This document shows positions 4,848 to 64,000 of a stretch of 64,000 bases of DNA, piece by piece. Origin of the DNA: Escherichia coli (GTDB lineage: Bacteria; Pseudomonadota; Gammaproteobacteria; Enterobacterales; Enterobacteriaceae); assembly GCF_024700885.2 (NCBI RefSeq), contig NZ_CP117014.1. One strand, given 5' to 3'. How positions within the stretch are numbered: position 1 is the first letter of the stretch; the number at the start of each line of letters is the position of its first letter. The notes under the pieces were generated by a model. The model was not told the DNA's origin. It did not search any database and saw only the letters and a program-made list of their open reading frames with translations. Position numbers and translations under genes: made by a program.

Positions 4848-5141
4848 ATGAGTCAAGGTAATGGTGACGGAGCTGCAAAGTGCAGAATCTCCACTTGTTT
4901 GATTAATGACAAAAAAATAGAACCGTGCGCGGCGTTGGCACAATCTCTGGAGAAGGATGCTGAATACACGACGCGGAAAGGTCTGCTGAAATACAAAATC
5001 TATAACCATGAATTAATTCATTCACAAGACCTGATCATGCTGCGGTCTGGTGAATTTTCTAAATCGCCTATTCGAGTTTCATTTTGCCCATTCTGTGGTG
5101 AAAGTCTGAAAACGTGGGAAGCGGAGGCAACCAGTGAATAA
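4848..5141 (+). CDS. Small Cys-rich protein with C-terminal zinc-ribbon-like CPFCGE
   Basis: ORF with ATG and RBS; CxxC pairs. Confidence 0.35.
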   Translation: MSQGNGDGAAKCRISTCLINDKKIEPCAALAQSLEKDAEYTTRKGLLKYKIYNHELIHSQDLIMLRSGEFSKSPIRVSFCPFCGESLKTWEAEATSE

Positions 5142-5778
5142 CCGCTTTTACATGATGTGCTTGCGTGAAACTGTGGGTAATAACGCCTCATTCCATTGCC
5201 ATAACGGCAATGGTTACAGTTCTGATATCGATCGCGCTCATATTTACACGCTGGAAGAAGCCCAAAAAGCCTGGAATTGTGGGCGAGATATCGATCAGCC
5301 TGTTTGTGCCGATAGTGTGGATGCAATGGCTGTGTGGCACGTTGATTGCCAGTACATCCCTACAGAAAGCCTGATTGAGTCAGATTGCACTGAGTATGTG
5401 GCCTACAAAAAAGGTAGCTGGAACGGCAACGATGTTTACTGGCTTCAACACGGTGGATTGCCAACAGATGACTTCAGTAAAGCGACCATCTTTAGCTTCG
5501 CCAACAAAAACGAACCAGGAATAGTTTGGTTGCCATTTTCCATTGCTGATGCAGCAAAGCGCCGGACGTTCAATATCAATAACTTTAACCGCAGAACAAT
5601 GGTTCAGGGCGCAGGTTTGGTCATGCCTGACTGGTTGAAAGAGCAGAACAGAAGAAAGAAGTCGCGAAGCGGGAAGGTGCGTTGGAATTGTCCGCATTGC
5701 GGAAAAATAACCTGGCAGTACAGCCCATATGATTTTGAAGGCTGTCGTGATTACAACTGTGAAGGATGGCGAGAATGA
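5134..5778 (+). CDS. Hypothetical protein with C-terminal zinc-ribbon-like motif
   Basis: 214-aa ORF; WNCPHCGK...CEGW near the C-terminus; start uncertain (GTG 5134 or ATG 5152). Confidence 0.35.
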   Translation: MNNRFYMMCLRETVGNNASFHCHNGNGYSSDIDRAHIYTLEEAQKAWNCGRDIDQPVCADSVDAMAVWHVDCQYIPTESLIESDCTEYVAYKKGSWNGNDVYWLQHGGLPTDDFSKATIFSFANKNEPGIVWLPFSIADAAKRRTFNINNFNRRTMVQGAGLVMPDWLKEQNRRKKSRSGKVRWNCPHCGKITWQYSPYDFEGCRDYNCEGWRE

Positions 5779-6488
5779 CAATTGACTATCAGGTACTGCG
5801 TGAGGCGGCAGAAAAGGCAACACCAGACGAATGGGTCGCATTTATTTCGACGGATACTGGTACTTATGCGGTGCACACGCCCGGTGATGAACGATGTGAA
5901 GACGTTATCAAATGGACCGGCTTTGATGGACAGAAAAATGCAGAGAACAACGCTCGTTATGTTGCCGCGTTCAACCCAAAGGTTGCACTGGAGCTTCTTG
6001 GTGAAATTAAGCGCCTGGAGGACACAAATATTGATGCTATGTGTCGAATTGCAGAGCTTGAGACTAATCTCGCGGCGCTGGCGGCGGAGAATGAACTGGC
6101 TCGTAAGGCAGTTCAGGCATTCTGCGATGTTGTTGGCGACAACACCGAGGTTATCGCTGAGGAGGTTGGGCGAGATGGCGTTCTGGTTATTTTGGAGGCC
6201 ATGAAGGCAACAGGAAATATGCCAGCCACCGATGCTTTTCTGGCTGAAATTCGTGCGGAAGCACGCAACGAGGGAGTTAACTATACCGCCAGCCGTCTTG
6301 CTGCTGCGTTCAATCACGGATTTATCAATAAGTCTTTGCGTGAAGTTTTCGACGTTACACGCATGATTTTGTCAGCGAAAGAAGAGTTGGCTAATGAAGC
6401 GCATCCGATTGATGGCCTGTCTGGTGAATATGCGGAGAAATCCCTTGAAGAATGGGCGGAACAGATTCGCAAAGGAGCTGACAAGTGA
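5775..6488 (+). CDS. Ead/Ea22-like protein (paralog of 7423-8178 N-terminus and 2054-2557 C-terminus)
   Basis: N-terminal MTIDYQVLREAAEKAT...AAFNPKVALELL matches 7423 ORF (MSKINYQALREAAEKAT...AAFNPKVALALL); LAALAAENE coiled coil. Confidence 0.5.
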   Translation: MTIDYQVLREAAEKATPDEWVAFISTDTGTYAVHTPGDERCEDVIKWTGFDGQKNAENNARYVAAFNPKVALELLGEIKRLEDTNIDAMCRIAELETNLAALAAENELARKAVQAFCDVVGDNTEVIAEEVGRDGVLVILEAMKATGNMPATDAFLAEIRAEARNEGVNYTASRLAAAFNHGFINKSLREVFDVTRMILSAKEELANEAHPIDGLSGEYAEKSLEEWAEQIRKGADK

Positions 6489-6895
6489 AGAAGATGATTT
6501 TTATCGCGGCATTGTTGGTGAATATCCAACAAGTGCATGCTTCAGCAGCTATTGTAGCCTCTACCGCCGCGACTACGGCTGCTGTAGCTGCTGCGAACTC
6601 TGCGAATATCGCAAACCAACAGGCACAGCGTGCTGCTAATGCATCAGCCAGCGTTCACTCAATCACCATTAAGAGCAGTAAGCAAAATCTGGGATTCATA
6701 ACGTGCGGCACGCGTTCTAATGAAGCTGTAGGTTCACTTGGATGTACGGTATATGGGGGTAGTGAGAATAGAGAAATTCCATGGAAAACGTGGCCCGGAT
6801 ACGTTCTTGGCTCGAAGCTCCCGGCCAGTTATGAAGTAAACGCCGTATCGTTTGATCACTATAACGGCGTGGCAACGGTCTATTTTGCATATTGA
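6485..6895 (+). CDS. Small secreted/periplasmic protein (signal peptide)
   Basis: N-terminal MKKMIFIAALLVNIQQVHA followed by an Ala/Thr-rich region; no lipobox cysteine. Confidence 0.4.
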   Translation: MKKMIFIAALLVNIQQVHASAAIVASTAATTAAVAAANSANIANQQAQRAANASASVHSITIKSSKQNLGFITCGTRSNEAVGSLGCTVYGGSENREIPWKTWPGYVLGSKLPASYEVNAVSFDHYNGVATVYFAY

Positions 6896-6902
6896 GGCCC
6901 GC

Positions 6903-7436
6903 ATGAAATTCTCCAAATTTTCTGAGTTGGTGAATCGTATTTTGTTGAATCGTATTTTGTCCAACAACCACAGCCATCGTCGCGATATGGATGTAACGAT
7001 CGTTGTTCATTCGCCTGGCAGCATTGGTTCAACACCCTCAGTTGAGGTTCAGTCAATTCACGCTGGTTTTGATTGGGATTCCGGGAAAGTGCTGATTTTC
7101 CCAGCACAGCCACTGACCACTCTAACACCAGAACAGATTACTGATATTACTGATAGTGTGCGCAAAGGTCAGTCCTGGCACGCATATCAGGAATACAAGA
7201 AGCATAAAGAGCAGTTGGAAAAATTATCGATTGAACTTGATACCGCAAAACAGCGCATTGCAGAGCTGGAGAGCAATCGCGCGGCGCTGGCGGCGGAGCA
7301 TGGTATTCAGATTGCAATAAATGAACTGCTTGCTCTGGCCCCGCGTCTGGATAAACGAGCGGTGGATGCACTCTCTGTGGCTGTGGAGCACCTGTGTAAA
7401 CTGATTAAGAAGGAGGCAGTCAGTGAGCAAAATTAA
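6903..7436 (+). CDS. Ead/Ea22-like coiled-coil protein
   Basis: ELESNRAALAAEHG motif; ATG at 6903 with RBS chosen over the upstream alternative start. Confidence 0.4.
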   Translation: MKFSKFSELVNRILLNRILSNNHSHRRDMDVTIVVHSPGSIGSTPSVEVQSIHAGFDWDSGKVLIFPAQPLTTLTPEQITDITDSVRKGQSWHAYQEYKKHKEQLEKLSIELDTAKQRIAELESNRAALAAEHGIQIAINELLALAPRLDKRAVDALSVAVEHLCKLIKKEAVSEQN

Positions 7437-8178
7437 TTACCAGGCACTGCGTGAGGCGGCAGAGAAAGCAACGTGGGGAGACTGGGACTCATATAAACCA
7501 CACCGTGGCGCACGTGGTTATAAGGTCCGACTAAGTGGTCAGGCCATTGCGCAACACGTTCTGAAAAACAACGCTGAATTTATTGCTGCCTTTAATCCAA
7601 AGGTTGCTTTGGCATTACTGGATGAACTGGAAAGAAACCAGCAATACATCAAACGCCGCGACCAGAAGAACGAGGATATTGCTCTTACGGTTGGGAAGCT
7701 GAGAGTTGAGCTTGAGGAAGTAAAACAACACGCTGAAGAATTATCCGAAACCAAGGCTGTTCGTAACCAATGGCGGCCAGATATTTGCCCAATAACCGGA
7801 CGTGCATTTTTCATGTGGATTGAGCATCCAACATTGGGAAATGTGCCGACATATGGTGGCCCATTAGATAGTTACACCATTCCAACAAAGGACGGTGACG
7901 GTGAGTTTTCATGTGAGCGTTACGATCATGATTTTGGCGGTTGGGTAGAAAGCGAATGTCTTGGGTTATATCTGATTGATGATAGAGAACAATGCAGGGT
8001 CTACGAACTGGAGGAGCGCGTTAAGGAACTGGATGCTCGGGAAATATCGCTCCCGGAACGTAGCAGCATGCTTCATCGAACAGATTTTCACGATGATTAC
8101 CAAACGGTAATGGCATACAAAGTTTCTGAAGTCATCGATGCAATCCGCGCTACTGGCATTCGCATCAAAGGAGAGTGA
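7423..8178 (+). CDS. Ead/Ea22-like protein
   Basis: GTG start with RBS AAGGAGG; N-terminal paralogy to 5775-6488. Confidence 0.45.
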   Translation: MSKINYQALREAAEKATWGDWDSYKPHRGARGYKVRLSGQAIAQHVLKNNAEFIAAFNPKVALALLDELERNQQYIKRRDQKNEDIALTVGKLRVELEEVKQHAEELSETKAVRNQWRPDICPITGRAFFMWIEHPTLGNVPTYGGPLDSYTIPTKDGDGEFSCERYDHDFGGWVESECLGLYLIDDREQCRVYELEERVKELDAREISLPERSSMLHRTDFHDDYQTVMAYKVSEVIDAIRATGIRIKGE

Positions 8179-8179
8179 G

Positions 8180-8590
8180 ATGAACGCTATAACCAAAGAA
8201 CGTATCAAATTATTCATTAAAAATCCGCTTGATAACGGACTTACTCGTGGCGAACAAATGGAACTGGCACGAATTGCTCTGGCATCGCTGGAAGCAGAGG
8301 CAGTTATGTTCTGTATATCAGGACAAAATGTAGATTCAGAAGAACATGTATCAACCAGCAAAGCGGTTGTTGATGCCTGGGTTGAAGAATGGAATCAGGT
8401 TGACGGAAGTCCTGGCGAACCACTGTACAAAACTATGCCACTCTACTATCACGCTGCCTTGCCAGCGCCGGTAGTGCCGGATGAAATGTATTGGCAGGAT
8501 GCGCCAGTTGAAGGCAGCAGCAAAGCGGCTGCATACGCTACAGGCTGGAACGCCTGCCGCGCCGCTATGCTTCATGGGAAAGGAGAGTGA
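8180..8590 (+). CDS. Hypothetical protein, N-terminal paralog of the 8866-10386 protein
   Basis: First 40 aa (MNAITKERIKLFIKNPLDNGLTRGEQMELARIALASLEA) nearly identical to 8866 ORF; about 90% DNA identity over roughly 120 bp. Confidence 0.45.
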   Translation: MNAITKERIKLFIKNPLDNGLTRGEQMELARIALASLEAEAVMFCISGQNVDSEEHVSTSKAVVDAWVEEWNQVDGSPGEPLYKTMPLYYHAALPAPVVPDEMYWQDAPVEGSSKAAAYATGWNACRAAMLHGKGE

Positions 8591-8591
8591 T

Positions 8592-8855
8592 ATGGCAACT
8601 TTAACAAAAAAAGAACGGGCATGGTTGAACGAATTACAGGACGTTCTTGATCGCTGTCCATCACCGAAAAAAATTGGTTTTTACACCATTGGCGATAAAA
8701 GCATTTACCTGTATGACCTGCGCCGCATGGATGAAATCATGGAGACTCTTGATAATCGTTCGTCGATGGATTGGTGTGTTGCTGTTCATGATATGAATGC
8801 AGGGTTTGATGAAAAGATTTTGTTCCCCTCATCAGTTGAAAGCACTGCGGGTTAA
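8592..8855 (+). CDS. Hypothetical small protein
   Basis: ORF starting MATLTKKERAWLNEL at an ATG directly after the previous stop. Confidence 0.35.
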   Translation: MATLTKKERAWLNELQDVLDRCPSPKKIGFYTIGDKSIYLYDLRRMDEIMETLDNRSSMDWCVAVHDMNAGFDEKILFPSSVESTAG

Positions 8856-8865
8856 GGAGTAACAC

Positions 8866-10386
8866 ATGACCACTATTACCAAAGAACGTATTGAATTGTT
8901 CATTAAAAATCCGCTTGAAAACGGGCTTACCCGTGGTGAACAAATGGAACTGGCACGGATTGCGCTGGCATCGCTGGAAGCAGATCCAGTTAAACGAGTT
9001 AACTCAGATCAGATGCGCCGAGTCTGCTTAGAAGCTAATCGCCATTTAGATAAATATGACGCGATGGCGAAAGAGGTAAATAAGTTGCTTGGACGCATCG
9101 CCCCGCCAGCGCCGGTAGTGCCGGAAGAAGCAACTCCGGAAAACGTAGAAATGCTCTCTGGCTATGTTTCCACGTACAAATTAACCGATAGCGAGCGCGA
9201 TATTGCTGCCGAAATATGGAACGCCTGCCGCACCGCCATGCTTCAGTCCGGAAACTTTCGGGAAAGCAAGAATTCGTCAACCAATAATTTTCGGGAAATC
9301 GCGGAAACGTCAACCAACTATCCGGTAATTCCTAGTGAGGTGTTGTCAGCAATCCTGAAGTTTGCCAGAGTTCGTGCCGATTTCGATGATTTTGACGGTG
9401 ACAGGCGAGGTATCGGTGATTGTCTGGATGAGGCCGAGCAAGAGCTTATCGTTACCATTAACAAATATGCCAGTCAGTTGGCAGCAGAACCGATAGCGAC
9501 TAATGACGTTCGAGAGCAAACAGCCGTTCCGCCAATACAGGCTGATGTCGCGCAAGCAATTGAAAATCTCAAGCAGAAGTTAGTGGAATGCAATCGCTAT
9601 AACTACTGCGCAGATGCAGTTAAAGGCGTAGAGGATGCCAGCCGCGTCTTGGCACTCCAAAATCAAAATATGTCAGCACCGGTAACGCCGGAGGCCATTG
9701 AAAACGCAATTGAATATATCCGCAGTATCGCTTTTCACATCGATGAAGACGATTACCACGGCAAGCATATTGCGTATTTCATGCGACAAGCATTGGCCTG
9801 GCTGGAAGGGCATTCATGCAGCGACGACAGGCTGGGTAAGGCCGACAATCAACCCGCATCTGGTAACCAGTCTGCCGAATCCAATCGCGGTAATGAGTGG
9901 ACCGGCAATCCTGATATTGATAACGCCATCATCATGCTCGACCGCATAGATACGGCGGAAAGTTGCGATGATGACCGTATTGAGGCCGTTAAGGCTGTGT
10001 TGCGTAGACTGGCAGGCAACTATCCGGATATTCCGGATAGTTCGGTGCCAGCGCCAGGAAAGGGCGTCACCGGTGAACGTATCCGCATTAAGCCGCATGT
10101 TTATCGCGAACTGGTTAACCGTCTCCACGATACAGCGATCAAGTGTGCTGGCACCCAGCAATTACGAGAAAGAATTAGCCGTGTTTTGGGCGACGTTATT
10201 ACACCAGATCATCATAAACAAGCCGAGAAAAGTGGCCTGGAAAGGTGTCGCCTTGAGGCGGCATTAAACATTAAGCCGGGGCATACGCTTGGCATTATTG
10301 ATGCACTATTGGTTCATAAGATGGCCAGGGCTTTATTGCCGCTGGTGGCTGAAAAGCATGAGGTGGACCATGCCAACGAAAGCTGA
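8866..10386 (+). CDS. Hypothetical 506-aa modular protein
   Basis: N-terminal module shared with 8180 ORF; C-terminal PHVYRELVNRLHDTAIKCAGTQQLRERI module shared with 1139-1750 protein; RBS AAGGAG. Confidence 0.45.
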   Translation: MTTITKERIELFIKNPLENGLTRGEQMELARIALASLEADPVKRVNSDQMRRVCLEANRHLDKYDAMAKEVNKLLGRIAPPAPVVPEEATPENVEMLSGYVSTYKLTDSERDIAAEIWNACRTAMLQSGNFRESKNSSTNNFREIAETSTNYPVIPSEVLSAILKFARVRADFDDFDGDRRGIGDCLDEAEQELIVTINKYASQLAAEPIATNDVREQTAVPPIQADVAQAIENLKQKLVECNRYNYCADAVKGVEDASRVLALQNQNMSAPVTPEAIENAIEYIRSIAFHIDEDDYHGKHIAYFMRQALAWLEGHSCSDDRLGKADNQPASGNQSAESNRGNEWTGNPDIDNAIIMLDRIDTAESCDDDRIEAVKAVLRRLAGNYPDIPDSSVPAPGKGVTGERIRIKPHVYRELVNRLHDTAIKCAGTQQLRERISRVLGDVITPDHHKQAEKSGLERCRLEAALNIKPGHTLGIIDALLVHKMARALLPLVAEKHEVDHANES

Positions 10387-19584: not shown

Positions 19585-19604
19585 GCCCCGCATCGCGGGG
19601 CTTT
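19585..19604. terminator. Bidirectional terminator between convergent 18538 gene and pacB
   Basis: GCCCCGC-atc-GCGGGGC followed by TTT. Confidence 0.5.
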
Positions 19605-21111
19605 ATATATCCAGATCCGGCATTTCGATATCCGCCAGAACCTGATCTCGGAAAGTTGCCATTTCGGCACCAATATCTTCATTAGCAGGCACATAGTCCA
19701 CCAGCATAGTGAAGCAGTAGGTATCCCATCGGTCAGGCGATTTGATGTTTAGCTTTTGCCGCATGTGCTCTTTGCGCATCATCGCCATTTTCCCTTCTTC
19801 ATTCAGTAAAAAGGGGATTTTTGACGCTTGCTCTGCCGTTTTAGGGTCACTGTCTATCCGCATACGCCCTGACTTTATGGCATCACGCGCCATAATGTTT
19901 GCGTAGGCACGCTGATTAACAAATCGCTCCCTGTCTTTGTTCGCAAACATGGGTTTTCCCCACCGAATACGTACCGGGTTCGCACCACGACGCACCAACT
20001 GCGCACACGTATCAGAACCAAAACCATCAGCATCAACCGCGATTGTTATATTCGGGTATTTTTCCGGCGTACATTCGTTATATATGAAGTCAGCAAAGGC
20101 CAATGGGTCCATAGTGCCAGGCATCTCCATTACCTTAAAGTTAACAACGCGCCGCTTATCCCTGTGACCTGATACCTTGCAGATGTTGAGGACCGACTTA
20201 TCTCGCCCATTACCAACGTCAGCCGTTGCCACCCATCCCCAGTTTTTCTCCAACAACACCTTGCGGCGAGCAGAGCGATCGCATTCATCACGACCAAGCA
20301 AATAGCCGTTAATTTCTCGTGGGAACTGACCAAGCACCTTGACCATGTACTCAATAGAATCGCGCCCACCATATTCCAGAAGCTTCTCCTTGATGAATTG
20401 TGGTGTGACGAACGGTGATTCTTCCGAGTTAAGAACAATTGCTGTCCAGATCCCTTTCGGGTTGTCTGGGGTTTTTGCTCGAGAATGGTGCGAATCGTAG
20501 AAATAACCACTTGGCCTTGTTGGCTGGGATAGCATCAACATCCGGTTATCTTCTTCAGTAAGAGCACCGGTCATTACGCCGATCGCCTTATCAGATATAC
20601 CAGATGCTTCATCCAGAATTAGAAGCAAATGTGCCGCGTGTTCCCCCGCCAGCGCTTCTTCGTTGCCGAGTCGATAACCTTTGCAGAGAACTTCCCAAAT
20701 CCCCTTACGGGAGCGCTCATAAAACATGGTGTCAGAGAGGACAAAATAGGTCTGCAACCACCCATGACGCTTAACTGCATTCGCCCAATACTGTTTAACG
20801 TATTTGAATACGCCTGTTTTTACCTGGCCTATCTTGTTAGCAACAATGATGACACGGGCATCGGGGAACAGGATCATAAAAATCAACAGCAACATCGCGG
20901 TAAGGGACGACTTCCCCGTTCCGTGTCCGGACGTGACGGTCGTCCTACTCCCCGTTTCCTGCACTGACTGAATGATCTGCTGCTGCTGGTGGGAGGGGAA
21001 CATCCCAAAAATATCGACTACAGCCTGGGTAAAGTTGTAGCGGTATTTGATTACCATATCGCGCCAGCGTGGATCGCTGGTGACGCATTTAATCTTGCGC
21101 CCGCCAGCCAT
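19603..21111 (-). CDS. pacB: Terminase large subunit (PacB-like)
   Basis: 502 aa; Walker A SGHGTGKSS, Walker B LLLILDEAS; downstream of pacA with overlapping stop/start. Confidence 0.75.
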   Translation of the reverse strand: MAGGRKIKCVTSDPRWRDMVIKYRYNFTQAVVDIFGMFPSHQQQQIIQSVQETGSRTTVTSGHGTGKSSLTAMLLLIFMILFPDARVIIVANKIGQVKTGVFKYVKQYWANAVKRHGWLQTYFVLSDTMFYERSRKGIWEVLCKGYRLGNEEALAGEHAAHLLLILDEASGISDKAIGVMTGALTEEDNRMLMLSQPTRPSGYFYDSHHSRAKTPDNPKGIWTAIVLNSEESPFVTPQFIKEKLLEYGGRDSIEYMVKVLGQFPREINGYLLGRDECDRSARRKVLLEKNWGWVATADVGNGRDKSVLNICKVSGHRDKRRVVNFKVMEMPGTMDPLAFADFIYNECTPEKYPNITIAVDADGFGSDTCAQLVRRGANPVRIRWGKPMFANKDRERFVNQRAYANIMARDAIKSGRMRIDSDPKTAEQASKIPFLLNEEGKMAMMRKEHMRQKLNIKSPDRWDTYCFTMLVDYVPANEDIGAEMATFRDQVLADIEMPDLDI

Positions 21112-22475
21112 TAATCATCCTCCGGCGGTTCTATCGCGATATCATCATCTCCGGCGTCATACCCTGCATCAGATGCATCATAATCACCGTAAATTTCAGC
21201 CGTTGCCGAAGGGTCAATATCCAGCTCTTCGTCGTTGGCCTCGAATTCTCCAGCTTTACGCTCGCCATTGCGGTCGTAATCTCCGCACCCCAATTCTTCA
21301 ACAATGGTTGCCACATCCGCCCGGCGCTCTGCCAGCCATTGCGGATGGTTAGCCTGAAGCGTTGCAAACTCCCTTGCCTCTTTGTCCAGCTGTTCATCAT
21401 CAACATCATTGACGTCAGAAACAGGTGGTTCGAGAAGAGTGATAGCTTTCGCCGCGCGCGCCGCGAGGATAGCCGGGACGCTGACACCCTGGCGCTCGAT
21501 GTATTCAGCAACACCGATATCATCCAGTTCCTCGCGCTCACGCATACGTATAGCGGCGGCGATAACTCTGGCTGCGCGTGCGTCAGCGCCAATGCGATAT
21601 TCAATCTCTTTGCCACGCTGTTCGGCCTGTAGGCGTGCTAATTCGAGTTTTTCTCTGGCCTCAGCCTCTTTGAATGCTTGCTGGCGAGCGCTCTGACGAA
21701 GCTTTTCATCCCCCTGTCGCAGCTTTTGTTCGGACTGATATATAGCTGCCAACCTACTGATAAAATCATTCATGTAGTAGGCCGCGTCACTGATTAGACC
21801 GAGAAGGCGCTGCCCAGGGTGCATTCCTTCTGGCTCTTTATCGCCCAAGGCGTCTATTTCCGCCTGTAGACGTTCGGCCTCCTGATCAACAATGCTTTGA
21901 TACTGAAGTGCGCGCTCTTGCGCCATTTGAATTGCTAACCGCAGGTGTTCTTCTGCGCCGTTCTTCATCATATCGCGAGCCACATTCGTAGTTGGCAATG
22001 TGGCACGCTGCACAGCACCGTCAGGGATCATTGCAGAAGATCCCTCAATTTTTGGGGCGTTTTTATCTTCTTCGGGGATCATTTTCGCCATTTTTTCGCG
22101 CAATGATCTCCTGACAGATTCTTTTATCTCATTGTTATTATTTGAATTATTTTCATGATCCGAAGTTTTCTTTCTCGGCATACTTCGGAAAGAACCTGCG
22201 CCCTGCGAATTGTCAATTTCTGTAAATTTTGTTTTTTCTGCACCCTCTTCCAGCTTTTTTGTTGCTCTTCCCGCCCGTTTTTTTTCAGGTGATTTGGTGC
22301 TTTTTTTTGTTGTCTTTACCTGCGACCGCACCTCATTTTTTTTCATATTGAGATGCTTTCTGGCTGTATTGAAGCTAAGGCCATGCTCCTCACAGTATTC
22401 CTTTACAGTGATCCCTTTTTCTTCACGCAACGCTATAAAGCGGGCGCGGTGCTCCTCCCAATTAACCAGACTCAT
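21111..22475 (-). CDS. pacA: Terminase small subunit (PacA-like)
   Basis: 454 aa, N-terminal HTH-like and Lys/Glu-rich region; position immediately upstream of pacB; GATC cluster inside. Confidence 0.6.
   Translation of the reverse strand: MSLVNWEEHRARFIALREEKGITVKEYCEEHGLSFNTARKHLNMKKNEVRSQVKTTKKSTKSPEKKRAGRATKKLEEGAEKTKFTEIDNSQGAGSFRSMPRKKTSDHENNSNNNNEIKESVRRSLREKMAKMIPEEDKNAPKIEGSSAMIPDGAVQRATLPTTNVARDMMKNGAEEHLRLAIQMAQERALQYQSIVDQEAERLQAEIDALGDKEPEGMHPGQRLLGLISDAAYYMNDFISRLAAIYQSEQKLRQGDEKLRQSARQQAFKEAEAREKLELARLQAEQRGKEIEYRIGADARAARVIAAAIRMREREELDDIGVAEYIERQGVSVPAILAARAAKAITLLEPPVSDVNDVDDEQLDKEAREFATLQANHPQWLAERRADVATIVEELGCGDYDRNGERKAGEFEANDEELDIDPSATAEIYGDYDASDAGYDAGDDDIAIEPPEDD
22026..22160. 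other. Candidate pac site (cluster of Dam GATC hexamers inside pacA)
   Basis: Five GATC sites within 135 bp (22026, 22039, 22077, 22105, 22157), far above chance; P1 pac is a cluster of TGATC(A/G) elements inside pacA. Confidence 0.35.
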
Positions 22476-22864
22476 AAAGCAACACCACGCTTTTTAACGG
22501 CGGCATTCCACAGCTTATTCGCCATGTCCACCAGCTCTCGTTGCTCTTTTCGCGCCTGTTCGACTGATTTCCTGCTACAGTTTTTAACCAGTAAACTGCC
22601 ATATTCAGGGGTTCGCCCACGCACCTTGAACTGATATCCGTTCAGGCCATGCAACCAGTATTTTCGTGGGTAAACACGATCATCAAGCTCACAGATTGCC
22701 CTGCTTGAACGAACAAAATGACGAATGATGTTAGTTACACTTACTCGTGAAACATGGAGATGAGGGTATTTTTCTTTGGCGAGAGTGGTAATTTCAGTGA
22801 CTGTCAGATAGCAGTCAGCCCTGATCATGATATCCGCAATTTCTGCGCTGCTGATTTGTTCCAT
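22472..22864 (-). CDS. Hypothetical 130-aa protein, positional analog of late-promoter activator Lpa
   Basis: Immediately upstream of pacA as lpa is in P1; operator-like motif TATTAGAA at 22941-22955 upstream. Confidence 0.3.
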   Translation of the reverse strand: MEQISSAEIADIMIRADCYLTVTEITTLAKEKYPHLHVSRVSVTNIIRHFVRSSRAICELDDRVYPRKYWLHGLNGYQFKVRGRTPEYGSLLVKNCSRKSVEQARKEQRELVDMANKLWNAAVKKRGVAL

Positions 22865-43026: not shown

Positions 43027-43209
43027 GAGTCACCGCGAAATGTTTTCAGTTTGCGGCAGCATAATCAGTATGTGATTTTTGATGATGGATCTTTTCAACT
43101 AGAAATATTGGCTGGCCCCTCTCGTAACAAAGTGAAGAATAAAACTTGAATATGCACATTGTGCGCATTAAGATTGAAAAAGTTGACCACTTTGCTGCGG
43201 AGAAATCCC

Positions 43210-43512
43210 ATGAAAAGCTCTTTAATTAATTCCAAATTACACCAACTTGCTATCAAAAATCGAGTTCCTGCATGGTCGGTTTACATGCATATCAGCCGCG
43301 CATGTCTGAGCAATGAAAACATTTACAATCTGCAAATTCTAAGCCGGGAAGGCAGGACTTTGTTTAGCGTTGCAGAGGATTCCTATAAGGCCTGGGATAT
43401 GCTGGATGACGCGTTAAGCCAATACGCGCAAACAGAAGAATGCCAAAAAGAATGGGCCAGGTACTGTGATGAAGGGATGCCATGCTGCGGTCTATTCGGC
43501 GCAGCTCTGTGA
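43210..43512 (+). CDS. Hypothetical small protein
   Basis: ORF; ATG at 43210 with GGAG upstream. Confidence 0.3.
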   Translation: MKSSLINSKLHQLAIKNRVPAWSVYMHISRACLSNENIYNLQILSREGRTLFSVAEDSYKAWDMLDDALSQYAQTEECQKEWARYCDEGMPCCGLFGAAL

Positions 43513-43524
43513 ATCGATTCAACG

Positions 43525-43788
43525 ATGATATACTTCGTTGCGAATCACAGCATTGGCAAAGGGCATATTGTGAAACAACTCCCACCAAACACCCCGGAAA
43601 CTATAATTGAAATCCGCCAGCGAATGGGGCTAACGCAAACGGAGTTAGCCCACAAAATGGGGTATCAACTCCGGGCTTGGCAATTCAAAGAAGATAGAAA
43701 TAAACCGAGACGCCTTATGGCTGGTGAATTTGAGTACCTGTTATTGCTTGCTGGAGAGCATCCTGAATTTATTCTTACACCACGCTAA
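43525..43788 (+). CDS. XRE-type HTH regulator (Hxr-like)
   Basis: IRQRMGLTQTELAHKMG helix-turn-helix; same position relative to ddrB as hxr in P1. Confidence 0.5.
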   Translation: MIYFVANHSIGKGHIVKQLPPNTPETIIEIRQRMGLTQTELAHKMGYQLRAWQFKEDRNKPRRLMAGEFEYLLLLAGEHPEFILTPR

Positions 43789-43792
43789 AAAA

Positions 43793-43808
43793 ACCCGCCT
43801 GACGGCGG
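43793..43808. terminator. Bidirectional terminator between convergent hxr-like and 43823 gene
   Basis: AAAAAAACCCGCC-tgac-GGCGGGATT. Confidence 0.55.
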
Positions 43809-43822
43809 GATTATCAATCATA

Positions 43823-44116
43823 TCAATTCACATCAATGTCTTGATATGATTCGCCAGTATCGTCTTCGTCGTCAGGATCTCCTTCCACCTCTGGCCACTC
43901 AACCTCCCAGCCAACAGTTTCCAGGCTCCGCAGAACAAACACCCCATCGGCATGAATGGTATTCACGATCCCCATTGCGGAATTTGAGTTGATAAAGCGT
44001 AAATCTTGCGCAATATTTTCTTCCGAAATATCGCCTTCAAATATACGCAATGTGCCGTCATCAGAGCATTCAACAATCCCTCTAATCCCAGCGGGACTCA
44101 CAATGCTATACTTCAT
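43823..44116 (-). CDS. Small acidic protein (IddB-like position)
   Basis: 97 aa, acidic C-terminus; overlaps the stop region of the upstream 1013-aa gene. Confidence 0.3.
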   Translation of the reverse strand: MKYSIVSPAGIRGIVECSDDGTLRIFEGDISEENIAQDLRFINSNSAMGIVNTIHADGVFVLRSLETVGWEVEWPEVEGDPDDEDDTGESYQDIDVN

Positions 44117-47100
44117 TTTGCAACTCCTTCATACATCCCAAGAAAAATTCCAGCACGCCGTCATTGTTTAATACAGAGTTAGTCGCCTGCTCCGGATCGG
44201 CATACATCTGCAAGGCCATAGAAAAAATCTCAGTCGCCCTGCAATTGCTTAATGCAGGTGGCTTTGATATAAATCTGCCGCTGACAGAACTTACCGTATT
44301 TTCCATATAAATTTTAGACATATATCCATGACTTAGGTCGGTTCGCACCAAATACTCAGCACTGCCACGGCTACCAATATTATGATAAGAAACTTTACCG
44401 TTAGTTTTTGATTTAATGAAGGCTTTGGCCCTCTCCAATAGATGGGGATTTGAATGTTCTATATGGTGACCTATTTCATGCCATAATACACGCTCGTGAT
44501 CACTATTAGCATCAATTGTTATATTCCCATTTCGACTTGCAAAAGCACGAACATTGTTCTTGTGGTTAATATTTTTTAATGTAGATAAAGTCCCTCCTGA
44601 AATAATATAGGCTTTTTCAATCGTCTCGCGAATACTGTATGCTTTACGGGAGAAAGTTTCATTATCGTGACCACTTAACTGCTCTGCTTCATCAGAAATA
44701 GCAATCCCACGACTCCATTCCTTAGACTGGTCATGTGACACATTTGACGATTCAAGAATCATGTCAAATGCGGCTCTGACTTTTTTATGTACTACATTTT
44801 CAAGCGCATTAGGATAGGCTTTTTGTCCACGTGTTAATGAAGCTATTTCATATAGTTCTGCTTGCAAGTCTTCCGGTATGTCCAGATTAAAAACAAGCAT
44901 TTTTTTCAGATCATATCCAATCCCATGATCATTCTGGTGCAAAACCTCAGCAAGGTAGTCAGTGAGTTTTTCCTTATTTGACCTAACTTTATTGATTTGT
45001 TCTATAGTAAAGTCAACACGCTCCTTGATTCCGTAATATGAGGAATGCTCTGCTAATTCCACTATCTCCTTAAGCCTGACAAGTGTCTCAATATACGCAT
45101 CAGCGATCTCCTCTGCCGTTAGTTCAGAGCTAACTCCGACACTGGCTGTTATTTTCCTACCAGCCGCCATAATATCGTCGATATTATGCAAGCTCTTTTT
45201 GAATAACTTCAAAGTATTTTGGATTATGCACACCATCTCTTCTGCGCTTCCAGCTTTATTCATTTCCTTTCTAAATCTTAAAGCTGTTTTCTCTGCAATA
45301 GACGCTGGAGATTTTAAATAGTTACCTAACCAAACAAGACAACCATTGCGCAATTCATCAATACTAAAGTCATCAGGAATATGTTTTGCTGCATTATGTA
45401 AAACACGTATAAATTGTTCAGCGGGCACGCCTTCTTCTGATATGTTGCAAAACGTTTCAATATCACAATCAATATTTCTTTCATCTGCGAGCGAAGGAGC
45501 TTCATCTCCTTTTTCAATCGCGTCACGCAGTGCGTTAGCATAAAAATTGCTGCGTTGATAAGACAATAACATCGTTGTTAACACAGCGTCGCTGTATCCA
45601 TAACGTTTAGCCCACTCCTTAATCTCATTAACGGTGACATTGCGAATATAAAAACCAAGTTCCAAAAATACATTGCGCTTTATTTTTTTTGCGGACTCCT
45701 TAATTTTTTCTGACACCTTCACGATTCGGATCAAGTCCTCCACGCTGGTCGCATCAGCAATTAGCTTTGAAATGTATGGTTCGACATCTCCTGAAACCGA
45801 TTCAAACATGGCGAAATTAAGCCCTTTACCTTCGCCATACTCAGCCTCAATTTCATCAGAAACGGCAGATAAAATGCTACGCAGATCGACATCTCCGCCG
45901 CCGAACATATCGCCTAACGCTTGTTGCTGGTGAATAAGTTCATCGTTAATTTTTTGCGCCAGTTTCTTGAAAGCTGCCCCCATTCGCTTAGCGCTTCGGT
46001 TGTTGGCAACAATAAACAGAGCAAGCGCTTCTGCTTCCGGAGTGCTATCTCCAAACAATCCACGCTGTGCGATCACCTCTTCTACTGCCTGACCGTTATC
46101 TTTTGCTTCACGAACAAGGTTAATTGCTTCCTGTAGCGCGGCAATAGCCTGTTTATCCAGACCATTCAATTGCTCTATACCGTCTACCAGTCCGGTTACC
46201 GTGTCATGGTGAACATCACCTGAAAGCGACTGCATTTGCGCAAAATCGCTGGCTGCCGTATTTAATGCGGTAAGAATGTTACGCATTTCCGGATCTGGCT
46301 CTTCCGCCACCAGCCGAACAAGCCTTTCATCCTTGTACGCTTTGGCAAAAATTGCATTCTGGATGCGGTCGATAAGTTGTTTCGTTGGACGCCCATCGGC
46401 AGTAAGCAAACCTGCCGTCGCCGTATCACCTATTTCGCGCAAAAACGCACGAATAAACGCATCATTGGACCGCGCCAGTAGATTTCCATCATCTGAAGGA
46501 TTAAATAGCGCCATGACGCTCTCAGTGAGAAATTGCGCATCCGCATACGCTTTTTCACTTGCAGCCATCTCTTGCAGATCGCTGATGTTTGAATCGCGGG
46601 CAAATTGTGCGCGGTCTACATCTGTGAGTCTTTCTCGCACCAATACGGGCATAGACATTTGTGAAATGTCGTCAGGATTCAGACCAAACTCTTTTGCATG
46701 ATCGATCAGGTACTGGCGATATTCATCCGCCTGCCCTTGCTCATAGGCACGCCAGATACCCATGCTCCTTCCGTTGCCGGATTCAACAACGTTGTCCGGA
46801 CCAACTATCGGCGCTCCGTGGCTGCTCATGCCGGAATCCGTTAATTGTGCCGGGCGTAAATTGGAGGCAATACGGTTAACCTGGAGTTTGCTTGATAGCC
46901 GTGTACGGTCACGTGGCTGGAGTTCTTCCGGGAAGGCCGGATTAATCGTACCGTCAAGGTTGTTCGAAATGATCAGACTGCTGGCATCAACGACCTTAAA
47001 AGCCGTCTTTACCTCTGCCCCTTTACTGGTGACTACGTAACTACTGCGCCCCTGGCGTGTTTCTCGCCTCTCTAATGAAGAAACCAGCGCAATAACACTG

Positions 47101-51012: not shown

Positions 51013-51048
51013 ATGCTTATTGGATACATTCGCATATCAACAAATGAT
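51013..51048 (+). pseudogene. Relic of a second invertase 5-prime end (MLIGYIRISTND...) in inverted orientation
   Basis: About 80% identical to the first 36 bp of the intact invertase gene (51698-51663) but frame diverges immediately. Confidence 0.5.
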
Positions 51049-51125
51049 GATGCGCCGCGCGATAAATGCACTCTATCTTGTGCGATAAATGGCATCCACG
51101 CGGCGTTTCATTATTTGAAAAAGAA

Positions 51126-51698
51126 TTACATTTCAGGTTGCGTTATGACAGTCCCAACAGGGTGATAGCGGTAGATCGTTGACAGTCCAATATCATAGAT
51201 AATTGCCAGCCGCTTTCTGTCATACCCTTTCTGGAGCAATCTTGCGATCTGCTCATGCTGCTCCTTCGTCAGTTTCGGGCGACGTCCTCCAACTCTTCCT
51301 TGTGCTCGCGCAGCAGCCAGTCCTGCCAGCGTGCGCTCAACTATCAGTTCACGCTCCATTTCTGCCAGTGCACCCATCATATGAAAAAAGAACCTTCCCA
51401 TCGGAGTGCTGGTATCGATTGAATCCGTCAGACTGCGAAAATTGACACCTTTTGCGCGTAACTCTTCTGTGAGAGCAATGAGGTGTTTCATTCTTCTACC
51501 CAACCGATCCAGCTTCCAGACCACCAATGTATCCCCTCTTTTAAGGCACTTTAAAGCGCGTTTCAGGCCTGGTCGTTCCGACTTGGTTCCGCTCATTTTG
51601 TCCTCAAAAATCTGTTCACATCCTGCGCACATTAATGCATTGCGTTGCAAATCTGTGTTTTGGTCATTTGTTGACACACGTATGTAGCCAATCAGCAT
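51126..51698 (-). CDS. cin: Serine DNA invertase (Cin/Gin/Hin family)
   Basis: MLIGYIRVSTNDQNTDLQ...LVVWKLDRLGR...C-terminal HTH (GLSTIYRY); about 190 aa from ATG at 51698; adjacent invertible segment. Confidence 0.85.
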   Translation of the reverse strand: MLIGYIRVSTNDQNTDLQRNALMCAGCEQIFEDKMSGTKSERPGLKRALKCLKRGDTLVVWKLDRLGRRMKHLIALTEELRAKGVNFRSLTDSIDTSTPMGRFFFHMMGALAEMERELIVERTLAGLAAARAQGRVGGRRPKLTKEQHEQIARLLQKGYDRKRLAIIYDIGLSTIYRYHPVGTVITQPEM

Positions 51699-51742
51699 TA
51701 AAAATACTCCCTTTTGAGTGGTTAAAGTACTGAGATAATGTG

Positions 51743-51768
51743 GGGAGGATTTGAGAGATAAACGTTGG
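51743..51768. repeat. Left crossover site (cix/gix-like) of the invertible segment
   Basis: Reverse complement TTCTCCCAAACC-AA-CGTTTATCTCTC; inner half-site identical to the right site. Confidence 0.65.
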
Positions 51769-51769
51769 T

Positions 51770-52123
51770 TTGGGAGAAGCGGCAAAACGGAATGTGGGCA
51801 CAGGAGATAATCAGATACCGGATATGGGAGCATTCGCTTCTGGTTCGGGATGGTTCAGGCTACCAGGTGGATATATTGTTCAGTTTGGCACTTTTTCAGG
51901 AAACACGACCCGCTTTATCAGTGGACACTTCCCTATACCATTCCCTAATCGGCCGATGGTTTCAGTCAGTGTTATGTCTGATGCCGTTCAGTCAGACCCG
52001 TCGAATCCTGCCCCGCATGTTTTGTCTGTAAATTTTGAACATATCAGTAATTCAGCGTGGCGTGTGGCAACCAGTGATATCTCACAGCAATACAGATTCA
52101 GTTATATTTCGATAGGATGGTAG
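51770..52123 (+). CDS. Alternative tail-fibre C-terminal exon (Sv-prime), currently silent
   Basis: Starts directly at the left crossover site; no own ATG; would fuse in frame to ...YLGLGE of the fibre after inversion. Confidence 0.6.
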
Positions 52124-52566
52124 AAATGCAGAAATATATTTTCAGTGCCGATAAAAATGCGTTTTTCCCTGTGGAGCTTAAAATCGCTTATCAGGAATCC
52201 GGCGAATGGCCCGATGATGGAATCGAAATTGACGACACTGTTGCTGCCGAATTTATGAAGGAAGCACCAGAAGGAAAATACAGAGGTGTCATCGACGGAA
52301 TGCCTGCATGGATTGATATTCCACCGCCAACTCATGAGGAACAAATTGCCGCAGCCGAACTGAAAAAGCAGCAATTGATTAATCAGGTCAACGAATACAT
52401 AAACAGTAAGCAATGGCCTGGTAAAGCGGCGATTGGTCGCCTGAAAGGTGAGGAACTGGTGCAATATAATTTGTGGCTGGATTATCTGGACGCACTGGAA
52501 CTGGTCGATACTTCCAGTGCGCCAGATATTGAATGGCCTACGCCTCCGGCAGTTCAGGCCAGATGA
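52117..52566 (+). CDS. Alternative tail-fibre assembly chaperone (U-prime)
   Basis: 149 aa; C-terminal [23 protein letters not shown] parallels the other Tfa ([25 protein letters not shown]). Confidence 0.65.
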
Positions 52567-53131
52567 CATCAGGCGCGGTGCTGGTATCTGTTGCCTCCAC
52601 CGCGTCAATGTAATCCAGCACAGCGTTAAGTCGGGTGGTTTCTGCCTGCGTCAGCTTCCGCCCGGCCCGTAATTTCAGCTGAATCAGACTGATGGAAGCC
52701 ATTGCAGCATCAATCAGCGACTGGCGCTTTACTTCTGCCGCGTCTAGTGCGGCGCTATGCTGTGCCTCGGTATCCGTCACCCATTTCTCACCATCCCATT
52801 TATCGTATGGCGTTAACGGTGAAAGCGTGACATAACCGTCTTTGATGGCACCGATATAATCCACTGTAACAGCTGCGCCATTTTCTGTTGAGTAAACAGT
52901 CTCATTGCGATGGTCTTCTTCATGGCTCCATCCCTTACCCGTAAATACTGCCACTCTTCCCGGAATGTATTCGCCCGGGTCAATACCAGTGGAACAGGCG
53001 GGCATACTTACGCCAGTATTAATATATTCATCAGACCAGCCAGTATATTCATACGTAACTGCCTCATAATAAAAACAACGCATATTACCCGGTACTGTAG
53101 CCAGCCCATTTTCATCAAAAACAGGTTTCAT
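52538..53131 (-). CDS. Tail-fibre assembly chaperone (U), expressed orientation
   Basis: 197 aa; MKPVFDENG...Tfa-type sequence; directly downstream of the fibre gene. Confidence 0.7.
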   Translation of the reverse strand: MKPVFDENGLATVPGNMRCFYYEAVTYEYTGWSDEYINTGVSMPACSTGIDPGEYIPGRVAVFTGKGWSHEEDHRNETVYSTENGAAVTVDYIGAIKDGYVTLSPLTPYDKWDGEKWVTDTEAQHSAALDAAEVKRQSLIDAAMASISLIQLKLRAGRKLTQAETTRLNAVLDYIDAVEATDTSTAPDVIWPELPEA

Positions 53132-55740
53132 TATGCAGCCCTCACAATATAATTAAAGGCGATGTTACGTGGACGGTTTTCATTAGCTGTTGGCACGACA
53201 CGAGAGGCGTCGAATCCAAGGTCATCGGTTTTGCCTATATCAGTTGTGTTATTCGGCATTCTCGCTGATCGTGTTCCTGCATCGTAAAAAGCCCCTCTGA
53301 TTGCATCAAAAGACATACCGATCCCGCCATCTGCGAATCCCTCAATATTTCTTATTGCATCCCCCTGTGAAGATAATAATTGTCGCCCGGCATCCACTCC
53401 ACGTCCGTCATCCCAGCCACGAATAAATTCACCGCGTAAATCAGGCAATTTATTTGTCGGATAAACCTTTGCCAGTTCCGGGTATTCTTCAGCAGAAAAA
53501 GCCGCACCGTTGCATTTCAGCCAGCCTGTTGGCGGAGTGGCGGAAGGCCACGGAACAGGCACACCAACGGGTAATGCCGAACCTTCTCCCAAACCAAGGT
53601 AATTGAGGACATCTTTTATACTGCCCTTAGCGATAATAGCGCGACCAATAGCTGTAAGGGTTGTCAGCGCTGCGCGGTCTGCTCCGGTAAAATAAGGCAA
53701 CCGATCTGCTGCAGTGGCAAGTCCTGCCAGAGCAGTGAGCGTGGCATCTGCCGGTTGTTTTCCGTTTGCCAGATCGTATGCAGCCTTGACAGCTTTCGGT
53801 GTAGCGGCCAGCACTTCAGACGTGCTGTTAGTGGCACTACTGAGCTGAGTGATGCCTTTCGCTGTCAATGAAGCTGTTGGCACACCAGTGATCTGATTCC
53901 AGGGATGTATATGATTGGATGGTGCCTTTCCGGCTGCTAGATCGTATGCAGCTTTAACCGCTTTTGGAGTTGCAGCTAATGTTTCAGAAGTGCTGTTGGT
54001 GTCGCTACTGAGCTGAACTATCCCTTTTTGTGTCGTGGTTGCATCCTGGGCTGTGTACTTCCCGTTAGCCAGGTCATATGCAGCCTTGACAGCTTTCGGT
54101 GTAGCGGCCAGCACTTCAGACGTGCTGTTAGTGGCACTACTGAGCTGAGTGATGCCTTTCGCTGTCAATGAAGCTGTTGGCACACCAGTGATCTGATTCC
54201 AGGGATGTATATGATTGGATGGTGCCTTTCCGGCTGCTAGATCGTATGCAGCTTTAACCGCTTTTGGAGTTGCAGCTAATGTTTCAGAAGTGCTGTTGGT
54301 GTCGCTACTGAGCTGAACTATCCCTTTTTGTGTCGTGGTTGCATCCTGGGCTGTGTACTTCCCGTTAGCCAGGTCATATGCAGCCTTGACAGCTTTCGGT
54401 GTAGCGGCCAGCACTTCAGACGTGCTGTTAGTGGCACTACTGAGCTGAGTGATGCCTTTCGCTGTCAATGAAGCTGTTGGCACACCAGTGATCTGATTCC
54501 AGGGATGTATATGATTGGATGGTGCCTTTCCGGCTGCTAGATCGTATGCAGCTTTAACCGCTTTTGGAGTTGCAGCTAATGTTTCAGAAGTGCTGTTGGT
54601 GTCGCTACTGAGCTGAACTATCCCTTTTTGTGTCGTGGTTGCATCCTGGGCTGTGTACTTCCCGTTAGCCAGGTCATATGCAGCCTTGACAGCTTTCGGT
54701 GTAGCGGCCAGCACTTCAGACGTGCTGTTAGTGGCACTACTGAGCTGAGTGATGCCTTTCGCTGTCAATGAAGCTGTTGGCACACCAGTGATCTGATTCC
54801 AGGGATGTATATGATTGGATGGTGCCTTTCCGGCTGCTAGATCGTATGCAGCTTTAACCGCTTTTGGAGTTGCAGCTAATGTTTCAGAAGTGCTGTTGGT
54901 GTCGCTACTGAGCTGAACTATCCCTTTTTGTGTCGTGGTTGCATCCTGGGCTGTGTACTTCCCGTTAGCCAGGTCATATGCAGCCTTGACAGCTTTCGGT
55001 GTAGCGGCCAGCACTTCAGACGTGCTGTTAGTGGCACTACTGAGCTGAGTGATGCCTTTCGCTGTCAATGAAGCTGTTGGCACACCAGTGATCTGATTCC
55101 AGGGATGTATATGATTGGATGGTGCCTTTCCGGCTGCTAGATCGTATGCAGCCTTGACAGCTTTCGGTGTAGCCGCTTTTCTTTCTTCTGTACTGCTTAT
55201 TTCATTAGAGAATTCGACACCAACAGCCCGGTTAACCCGGTATTTAAGCACAATCATTTCTTTAGTCACAGCCGTTGCGCCGCTAGGCACGATAACTCGA
55301 CATAATTCAATTTGATTCTGCCCAATAGTATTGTCCGTACGCGCGTAAATTCTTGCAGCACTGACAGAAGATGCGCTATCTACCTGTGTCGTTTTTACAC
55401 CATGTTCAAAATTGGCTTCCAGCACAATAATGTTGGTAGCCCCTGCCTTTACCGAGACAGTCACATCTTCTATTTGCTGAACGGATATCTGAACATTATT
55501 TACATCTACTGAAGCAGCCCCTTTACCTTCGGAGTTTTCAGAAGTTATGCGGACACTCAACCCTGTGCCGGGAACCGGTTCAAATCCACAGTAAAAGCCA
55601 GGCAAAACAATATTTTTTAGTTTTCTGTTAAGAGCCAGACTACTATAGAGTTCGAAATATTGAACATCAGCAAGCAACGACTGTGAGACACCAGAGGATA
55701 GTGTCATTATGTTGTTCGTTTTATCAGCCCCCATAATCAA
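53131..55740 (-). CDS. Tail fibre protein S with tandem-repeat shaft and invertible C-terminus
   Basis: 869 aa; repeated ATPKAVKAAYDLA units; C-terminal GEFIRGWDDGRGVD...NIAFNYIVRAA; right crossover site inside the gene. Confidence 0.8.
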   Translation of the reverse strand: MIMGADKTNNIMTLSSGVSQSLLADVQYFELYSSLALNRKLKNIVLPGFYCGFEPVPGTGLSVRITSENSEGKGAASVDVNNVQISVQQIEDVTVSVKAGATNIIVLEANFEHGVKTTQVDSASSVSAARIYARTDNTIGQNQIELCRVIVPSGATAVTKEMIVLKYRVNRAVGVEFSNEISSTEERKAATPKAVKAAYDLAAGKAPSNHIHPWNQITGVPTASLTAKGITQLSSATNSTSEVLAATPKAVKAAYDLANGKYTAQDATTTQKGIVQLSSDTNSTSETLAATPKAVKAAYDLAAGKAPSNHIHPWNQITGVPTASLTAKGITQLSSATNSTSEVLAATPKAVKAAYDLANGKYTAQDATTTQKGIVQLSSDTNSTSETLAATPKAVKAAYDLAAGKAPSNHIHPWNQITGVPTASLTAKGITQLSSATNSTSEVLAATPKAVKAAYDLANGKYTAQDATTTQKGIVQLSSDTNSTSETLAATPKAVKAAYDLAAGKAPSNHIHPWNQITGVPTASLTAKGITQLSSATNSTSEVLAATPKAVKAAYDLANGKYTAQDATTTQKGIVQLSSDTNSTSETLAATPKAVKAAYDLAAGKAPSNHIHPWNQITGVPTASLTAKGITQLSSATNSTSEVLAATPKAVKAAYDLANGKQPADATLTALAGLATAADRLPYFTGADRAALTTLTAIGRAIIAKGSIKDVLNYLGLGEGSALPVGVPVPWPSATPPTGWLKCNGAAFSAEEYPELAKVYPTNKLPDLRGEFIRGWDDGRGVDAGRQLLSSQGDAIRNIEGFADGGIGMSFDAIRGAFYDAGTRSARMPNNTTDIGKTDDLGFDASRVVPTANENRPRNIAFNYIVRAA
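53584..53609. repeat. Right crossover site (cix/gix-like) inside the tail-fibre gene
   Basis: TTCTCCCAAACC-AA-GGTAATTGAGGA, inverted relative to the left site; segment between sites about 1.84 kb. Confidence 0.65.
53761..55160. repeat. About 4.6 copies of a 300-bp tandem repeat inside the tail-fibre gene (copies 2-5 perfect)
   Basis: Identical text recurs at 54061, 54361, 54661, 54961; first copy at 53761 slightly divergent; encodes a 100-aa unit. Confidence 0.85.
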
Positions 55741-63732: not shown

Positions 63733-63941
63733 TTATCCACAGGATAGATCCAATATATAGATCCTGATTAGATCCATATAGTACCAAATAGATCCCGTAG
63801 CTCTTCAGGCCGCGCCACATAAGGCTTTAACCACTATTCAGATGTGTGCTGGAGGGAGAACGATGTGTGCTGACGGGAAAAATATGTGTGCTGGAGGGTT
63901 TTACATGTGTGCTGACGGGATGTAGGATGTGTGCTGACGGG
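63733..63941. other. Plasmid-type replication origin (oriR-like): DnaA box, GATC heptamer cluster, five iterons
   Basis: TTATCCACA at 63733-63741; AGATCC repeats at 63746-63795; five 21-bp-spaced iterons (G/C/T)ATGTGTGCTG(G/A)(A/C)GGG at 63841, 63862, 63883, 63904, 63926. Confidence 0.75.
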
Positions 63942-64000
63942 AAAAAAAGCCGGATATCCACTGTCGTAAACTTTATTCACAACATGACGGTAACTTATTG

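Follow-up and report, generated by a model that had tools for sequence, protein, structure and literature searches.

A conserved GATC array within pacA as the probable pac site of a D6-like, P1-related plasmid prophage

Where does a D6-like relative of phage P1, carried in Escherichia coli as a plasmid prophage, begin to package its DNA? The pac site of P1 is the textbook case of methylation-gated packaging and serves as the handle of P1 phagemids in DNA delivery. What is said below of the P1 pac hexamers, of their methylation and of IHF is background from PMC10028697, which also describes the same P1 sites as binding pacase and imposing methylation control, and reports that phage yield falls in a graded way when such sites are recoded in P1. 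The 64-kb stretch of DNA analysed here (the window) holds five GATC sites in 135 bp inside its small-terminase gene, and a first-pass annotation had pointed to this cluster as a P1-like pac site and as the likely cut site. Coordinates and count are exact, and the open reading frame concerned is 99% identical in DNA to pacA of Escherichia phage D6. We consider it likely that the five sites are the core of the pac site at which PacA/PacB headful packaging of this D6-like plasmid prophage starts. The feature is a variant of P1-type pac, altered in its repeat and simpler in layout, and not a new kind of mechanism. As to the cut, the cluster is better described as a terminase recognition array that probably contains it.

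D6 is a distant relative of P1 with a plasmid prophage lifestyle, and the region around the array is 99% identical to its DNA across lpa, pacA and pacB. By its sequence, the window is a D6-like, P1-related plasmid prophage. It is a mosaic relative of D6, not D6 itself, since several segments have no long BLAST match to that phage. The relevant features are these:

2164-2803, 5138-9537, 43079-45801 and 51048-55153: segments without a long match in BLAST against D6.
22472-22864, minus strand: lpa (Pfam BPP1_LPA, E 5e-57).
21111-22475, minus strand: pacA, small (recognition) subunit of a P1-type pacase, 454 aa (open reading frame, D6 identity, PHROG 1711).
19603-21111, minus strand: pacB, large terminase (nuclease) subunit (open reading frame, D6 pacB annotation, PHROG 2, weak Terminase_6N match).

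Similarity to D6 ends at 63702, and the replicon of the window differs from that of D6 at that position. A P1-type plasmid origin lies at 63740-63945; its four TAGATCC heptamers (63747-63794), every one of which includes a GATC, make up the tightest four-GATC cluster of the window and are followed by five 19-bp iterons, GATGTGTGCTGRMGGGA. The closest plasmid for this origin region is NZ_CP035876, at 100% identity.

PacA matches PHROG 1711 ('terminase') with E 2.8e-184, and PacB matches PHROG 2 (terminase large subunit) with E 8e-40. The two genes are adjacent, as in P1, and the start of pacB overlaps the stop of pacA. At the other end of pacA the start codon overlaps the lpa stop (ATGA, 22472-22475), whereas P1 has an intergenic region with the late promoter LPpac between lpa and pacA; in the window element, expression of pacA may be coupled to lpa. 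PacA is colinear with its P1 counterpart over the full length, differing from it in being 57 aa longer and in sharing only 21% identity. It consists of an N-terminal helix-turn-helix region (aa 1-45, with a weak HTH_23 match, under the Pfam cut-off, at aa 7-42), a Lys/Asn-rich linker (~aa 46-160) and a conserved C-terminal part. The linker is poorly conserved, and it is the DNA coding for it that contains the GATC array.

In D6, pacB is followed by c1, rox and dre, a gene order that parallels pacA-pacB-c1-lox-cre of P1. The window has the same pacA-pacB-c1-rox-dre order as D6, with rox ~3.7 kb from the array. A recombination site thus lies a few kb downstream in the direction of packaging, a feature shared with P1, in which the corresponding recombinase target is lox (~4 kb downstream for lox or rox). 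The D6 genome annotation includes an adenine methylase similar to P1 dmt, located outside the window, and no methylase gene is found within the 64 kb; host Dam would also serve for methylation of the array.

The array and its component sites are as follows (gene positions count from the first nucleotide of pacA):

22026-22160: GATC array, the proposed pac recognition array (pacA nt 316-450 of 1365), with five GATC sites that are invariant in the D6-group lineages.
22155-22162, plus strand: site 1, motif ATGATCCG, backward relative to pacA; nt 316, encoding Asp-His, phase 0.
22102-22111, plus strand: site 2, motif AATGATCTCC; nt 368, phase 1.
22075-22084, minus strand: site 3, AAATGATCCC on the gene strand; nt 396, encoding Met-Ile-Pro, phase 2.
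22039-22042: site 4, GGGATCTT here and GGGATCAT or AGATCAT in relatives; nt 434, phase 1.
22024-22032, minus strand: site 5, AATGATCCC on the gene strand; nt 447, encoding Met-Ile-Pro, phase 2.
22410-22413: a sixth GATC, in the sequence GTGATCCC on the plus strand; nt 63, conserved in the D6 group.

The five GATC tetramers start at 22026, 22039, 22077, 22105 and 22157 (pacA nt 447, 434, 396, 368 and 316). Followed along the gene, the repeats at 316, 368 and 434 point backward and those at 396 and 447 forward, and successive sites are 52, 28, 38 and 13 bp apart, centre to centre. The layout is that of a lone upstream site 1 and two inverted pairs, sites 2/3 (28 bp centre to centre) and the tight pair 4/5 (13 bp apart); site 5 also repeats site 3 in the same orientation, at a distance of 51 bp. 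The repeat consensus is asymmetric, approximately (A)ATGATCC(C), with one ATGATCT and one AAGATCC among the five. None of the five matches the P1 hexamer TGATC(A/G) on either strand, and a cluster of such P1-type TGATCR hexamers is found nowhere in the 64-kb window. The sixth GATC lies inside conserved Gly-Ile-Thr codons of the helix-turn-helix region, and its membership of pac is therefore uncertain.

Taken by count alone, the cluster of GATC sites is not significant (P ~0.27). (What this means operationally is that GATC is not enriched in the window as a whole, with 240 sites observed against 248 expected, and that random placement of 240 sites produces a cluster of five in at most 135 bp somewhere in ~27% of trials.) Yet five GATC sites are nowhere packed more closely, either in the window or in the 91-kb genome of D6, whose next independent cluster extends over 331 bp. 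The longer motif ATGATCY has 18 copies in the 64 kb, which is the expected number, and four of these fall within a 137-bp stretch at the array; the probability of such a four-in-137-bp cluster under random placement is 8e-5, for a motif picked post hoc from the same data.

Comparison across the PacA family is more informative. A tblastn search with PacA matched 139 plasmid records, at identities from 100% down to ~28%, and IMG/VR contributed 74 further pacA loci; the Salmonella plasmid pSa1423-90k (L009) was left out of the comparison, its pacA being fragmented. Among phage records, D6 was the sole match at E 1e-5, and P1 was added by accession (NC_005856). Eleven clade representatives were compared: P1, a P1 relative, Pantoea, Serratia, Citrobacter, Leclercia, Enterobacter, one unassigned clade and three D6-group lineages. 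Between pacA nt 140 and 480, GATC is enriched 2-12-fold over the rest of the gene in all 11 and is the commonest palindromic 4-mer in 10 of them. A GATC cluster in the linker-coding DNA is present in every representative, including P1, whose pac has been mapped there: the P1 annotation places the IHF site and the primary cleavage positions at pacA nt 256-268 and 276-285, and the 4+3 hexamers lie at nt 195-232 and 325-351, so that pac occupies ~nt 195-351 of 1194. Since the IHF site, the cuts and the hexamers of P1 all fall in this same linker, the D6-like array is, as judged by sequence comparison, the positional counterpart of the mapped P1 site. Like P1 pac, it falls in the first third of pacA, past the helix-turn-helix region and in the part that codes for the linker, and consists of several repeats each holding a Dam GATC.

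A further possible likeness concerns the interval between the first two sites:

22109-22156: spacer between sites 1 and 2, 48 bp, 77% A+T, with a conserved ATAACA core; candidate bending and cleavage zone.
22125-22137, minus strand: IHF-like box TAACAATGAGATA, within this spacer at pacA nt 339-351.
22108-22117: predicted cleavage zone, placed by transferring the geometry of P1, where cuts fall 8-17 nt 3' of the IHF box.

The IHF-like box is identical to the annotated P1 site, AAACAAAGAGTTA, at 10 of 13 positions, and in both elements the box lies 20-27 bp downstream of a GATC site. A pattern fitted post hoc, after the data had been seen, WAACARNRRGWTA, describes the box at the equivalent place in P1, in the 70%-identical P1 relative, in all D6-group lineages and in the Enterobacter clade; in each of these pacA genes this is the only match at one mismatch or fewer, and there is one exact match in the 64-kb window. 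The general IHF consensus WATCAANNNNTTR has no match at one mismatch or fewer in the D6-group linker, the box itself deviating at two positions. Because the pattern is post hoc and the general consensus is not fitted, the box is a plausible rather than an established IHF site, resting on its likeness to that of P1.

The same transfer of geometry gives a cut at about 22108-22117 as the best guess. The hexamer TGTCAG, in which the primary P1 cuts are annotated, occurs at 22111-22116 on the minus strand, 8 nt downstream of the IHF-like box, and the alignment of P1 with the window from the left GATC to TGTCAG beats 99% of shuffles. As a conserved cleavage motif TGTCAG was rejected, being found in P1, in the lineage of the window and in one other clade and absent from the other D6-group lineages; it is a hint of where cleavage occurs. 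An alternative cut at ~22093 (approximately gene nt 383) is suggested by the coinciding midpoints of the 316/447 and 368/396 pairs, a nested dyad that was noticed post hoc and whose symmetry is broken by site 4.

In one draft IMG genome (2537562191), a contig end (L047) and a contig start (L036) fall inside the array at the equivalent of window 22147-22156 (pacA nt 320-329), immediately beyond site 1, and the two contigs share 10 nt, ATGAAAATAA. The break may reflect faulty assembly of the A+T-rich spacer, or it may be the trace of a physical DNA end. As evidence of a DNA end it was set aside, since it was seen once, the contigs overlap by 10 nt, and only ~1 in 35 D6-type contigs breaks there.

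The likeness to P1 does not extend to the form of the array. In P1 the repeat is TGATC(A/G), against the asymmetric ATGATCC(C) here, and the hexamers form tight clusters of four and three on either side of a ~90-bp central spacer, against a single dispersed array of five sites in mixed orientation over 135 bp, for which a 1+4 or a 2+3 partition is possible. An upstream arm is present in P1 and absent from the D6-like array. Both arms are said, from work of Sternberg and Coulby in 1987, to be needed for efficient cutting of P1 pac; the D6 group having no upstream arm, the P1 mechanism may not carry over to it unchanged.

In fact, every clade except the D6 group has a second, upstream GATC cluster at ~nt 150-255 of pacA, and no upstream hexamer arm is found in D6-group pacA. 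The P1-like phage-plasmids of Pantoea, Serratia, Citrobacter, Leclercia and Enterobacter share with the D6 group the gene, the linker and its enrichment in GATC, and differ from it in keeping this left-hand cluster, which in Pantoea consists of seven TGATCA at 12-bp spacing. (In L012 and related Pantoea-type loci the seven copies lie at pacA nt 154-237, six of them at an exact 12-bp period, and encode a repeated Asp-His/Asp-Gln peptide, a left arm far more regular than that of P1.) No characterisation of the GATC sites of these other pacA lineages was found in the literature searched. The Enterobacter clade, which at 56% identity is the closest outgroup, has both clusters, the left one at nt 157-181. 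It resembles the D6 group in its ATGATCC/GGGATCAT repeat, in a 28-bp inverted pair and in the IHF-like box.

Also upstream of the array is a conserved direct repeat, AAATTKACA / CTKACAAA, with 11-bp spacing (window 22210-22229, minus strand; pacA nt 247-266), which is common to the D6 group and the Enterobacter clade and absent from more distant clades. This repeat may be another element of pac at which a protein binds.

The most serious doubt about the array as pac arises here: because all other clades are bipartite, with the left cluster 100-200 bp upstream, the array might be the right half of pac only, joined to a GATC-less left arm further upstream, with the cut between the two and outside 22026-22160. 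The Enterobacter clade, in which a left cluster accompanies the loss of site 1, speaks for such an arrangement, as do the invariant blocks AATTTACA and TGACAA at gene nt 248-266; the direct repeat at 22210-22229 or the GATC at 22410 would then be the candidate left arm. Against this, the IHF-like box lies inside the array, its P1 counterpart being next to the cut; the conserved upstream blocks are unlike the ATGATCC repeat, and their repeat is not found in the more distant clades. We regard the half-site arrangement, and these left-arm candidates jointly with it, as unlikely, and prefer the array as the core of pac.

Of comparably low probability is the proposal that the array is functional as a Dam/SeqA element, timing expression of pacA and pacB or sequestering the region, with pac situated elsewhere. 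Dam-site clusters do regulate or sequester in other settings, the origin-like cluster at 63747-63794 of this window being an example of the kind. A search for an internal promoter found no sigma-70-like sites between 21700 and 22900 on either strand, and neither the D6 genome nor the window offers an alternative dense cluster of GATC or TGATCR. The positional match to the mapped P1 site and the shared IHF-type box favour pac. The two roles are also compatible, in that the P1 sites both bind pacase and impose methylation control.

Evidence that the array functions as DNA comes from comparison within the D6 group. This conservation test comprises three deep lineages only, related by 72-75% identity in DNA and 68-74% in protein. 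In all three, GATC occurs at exactly nt 316, 368, 396, 434 and 447 while flanking bases vary; the other pacA GATCs (nt 589, 634, 681, 1032, 1086, 1147, 1180 and 1261) are lineage-specific. All five GATCs are invariant, against 45 of 342 linker 4-mers (13%; naive P ~4e-5). Nine invariant runs of at least 6 nt occur in the linker and four of them contain a GATC site (CGGATCA, GATCATT, AAATGATCCC and AATGATCCC). CGGATCA, at site 1, is invariant in the D6 group, and the site is absent from the Enterobacter clade; the 10-nt run at site 3 is invariant in all D6-group lineages and the Enterobacter clade, and site 5 has a 9-nt run invariant in the D6 group. As a positive control, P1 was compared with its relative of 70% protein identity: six of the seven defined pac hexamers stand out as conserved islands, on a background of 19% identical 4-mers.

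The peptides encoded at sites 1 to 5 are Asp-His, Arg/Gly-Ser, Met-Ile, Gly/Arg-Ser and Met-Ile, in phases 0, 1, 2, 1 and 2, and sites 2 and 4 retain GATC through replacements of Arg and Gly by one another. Three phases, two orientations and the survival of GATC through these changes argue that the constraint, as read from the sequences, acts on the DNA and not on a peptide motif. That the cluster is a by-product of encoding Met-Ile-Pro (twice), Asp-His and Gly/Arg-Ser with GATC, devoid of function at the level of DNA, is highly improbable: the D6 group does conserve Met-Ile-Pro and Asp-His at the amino-acid level, and the cluster statistic for the window is not significant, but unrelated peptides share the DNA motif, synonymous third positions are invariant in all five GATCs as against ~37% of third positions across the linker, and clades whose linkers cannot be aligned all carry GATC clusters there.

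Single D6-type contigs from IMG/VR lack one site (nt 368 in L027, nt 396 in L042), and P1-type sequences (L088 and L059) likewise lack single hexamers. Loss of one site seems to be tolerated, unless the missing sites are sequencing errors.

Invariance within the D6 group, the presence of a linker GATC cluster in all 11 clade representatives and the IHF-like box inside the array thus bear out the first-pass identification of a P1-like pac site. The form of the array differs from that of P1 pac, the repeats being of ATGATCC type rather than TGATC(A/G) and the layout other than 4+3 bipartite.

The change of repeat has a possible correlate in PacA. The putative recognition helix reads ARKHL in the D6 and Enterobacter clades and ARR(E/Q/Y)(L/F) in the clades that use TGATCA; the ATGATCC-type repeat is restricted to the D6 and Enterobacter clades, the same two that have Lys-His in this helix. 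As a pattern in sequences this is a single co-occurrence and falls short of proof of co-evolution. We tentatively propose, with rather less confidence than attaches to the location of pac, that D6 pac is a compact and re-specified site, comprising one asymmetric ATGATCC(C) array with inverted pairs and no distal arm, recognised by a PacA with a changed helix. If this is true, the D6 pac/pacase would be heterospecific with pac/pacase of P1, forming an orthogonal pair as Dre/rox does with Cre/lox, and the two-arm geometry of P1 would not be essential.

Initiation of packaging can be pictured by analogy with P1, for which cleavage and methylation control are established; for the D6-like array, which is known here from its sequence, both are predicted. 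PacA would bind the repeats through its N-terminal helix-turn-helix region, and the host bending protein IHF would bind the A+T-rich spacer between sites 1 and 2, both steps being transferred from P1. PacB would cut nearby, most likely at ~22108-22117, and packaging would run toward pacB, c1 and rox, ~3.7 kb away. This would place rox in the terminal redundancy of the first headful, where it could be used for recircularising the DNA. Each repeat holds a Dam site, so that adenine methylation probably gates cleavage as it does in P1, from which the Dam dependence of the array is inferred.

A working analogy, and no more than that, is provided by cosB of phage λ, at which the helix-turn-helix small terminase gpNu1 binds several R-sites, and the bend introduced by IHF (at I1) adjoins the nicking site. 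A helix-turn-helix small subunit acting on repeats together with an IHF-induced bend would be common to both systems. On the other hand, λ makes a precise cut at cos with cohesive ends and its repeats have no Dam sites, whereas in D6 and P1 headful packaging starts from pac, and the repeats are located within the terminase gene. The GenBank records of D6 have no annotated pac feature, and full-text literature searches found no description of a D6 pac site, although an earlier mention in print is possible.

D6-like phage-plasmids are common in E. coli and Salmonella, as the 139 plasmid records matching PacA indicate, and locating their pac would help to predict what these elements package and transduce. 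The D6-like site would add a second packaging signal, probably orthogonal to that of P1, for the design of phagemids. It would also provide a natural experiment in the joint change of specificity of a terminase and of a recognition site that lies within the terminase's own gene.
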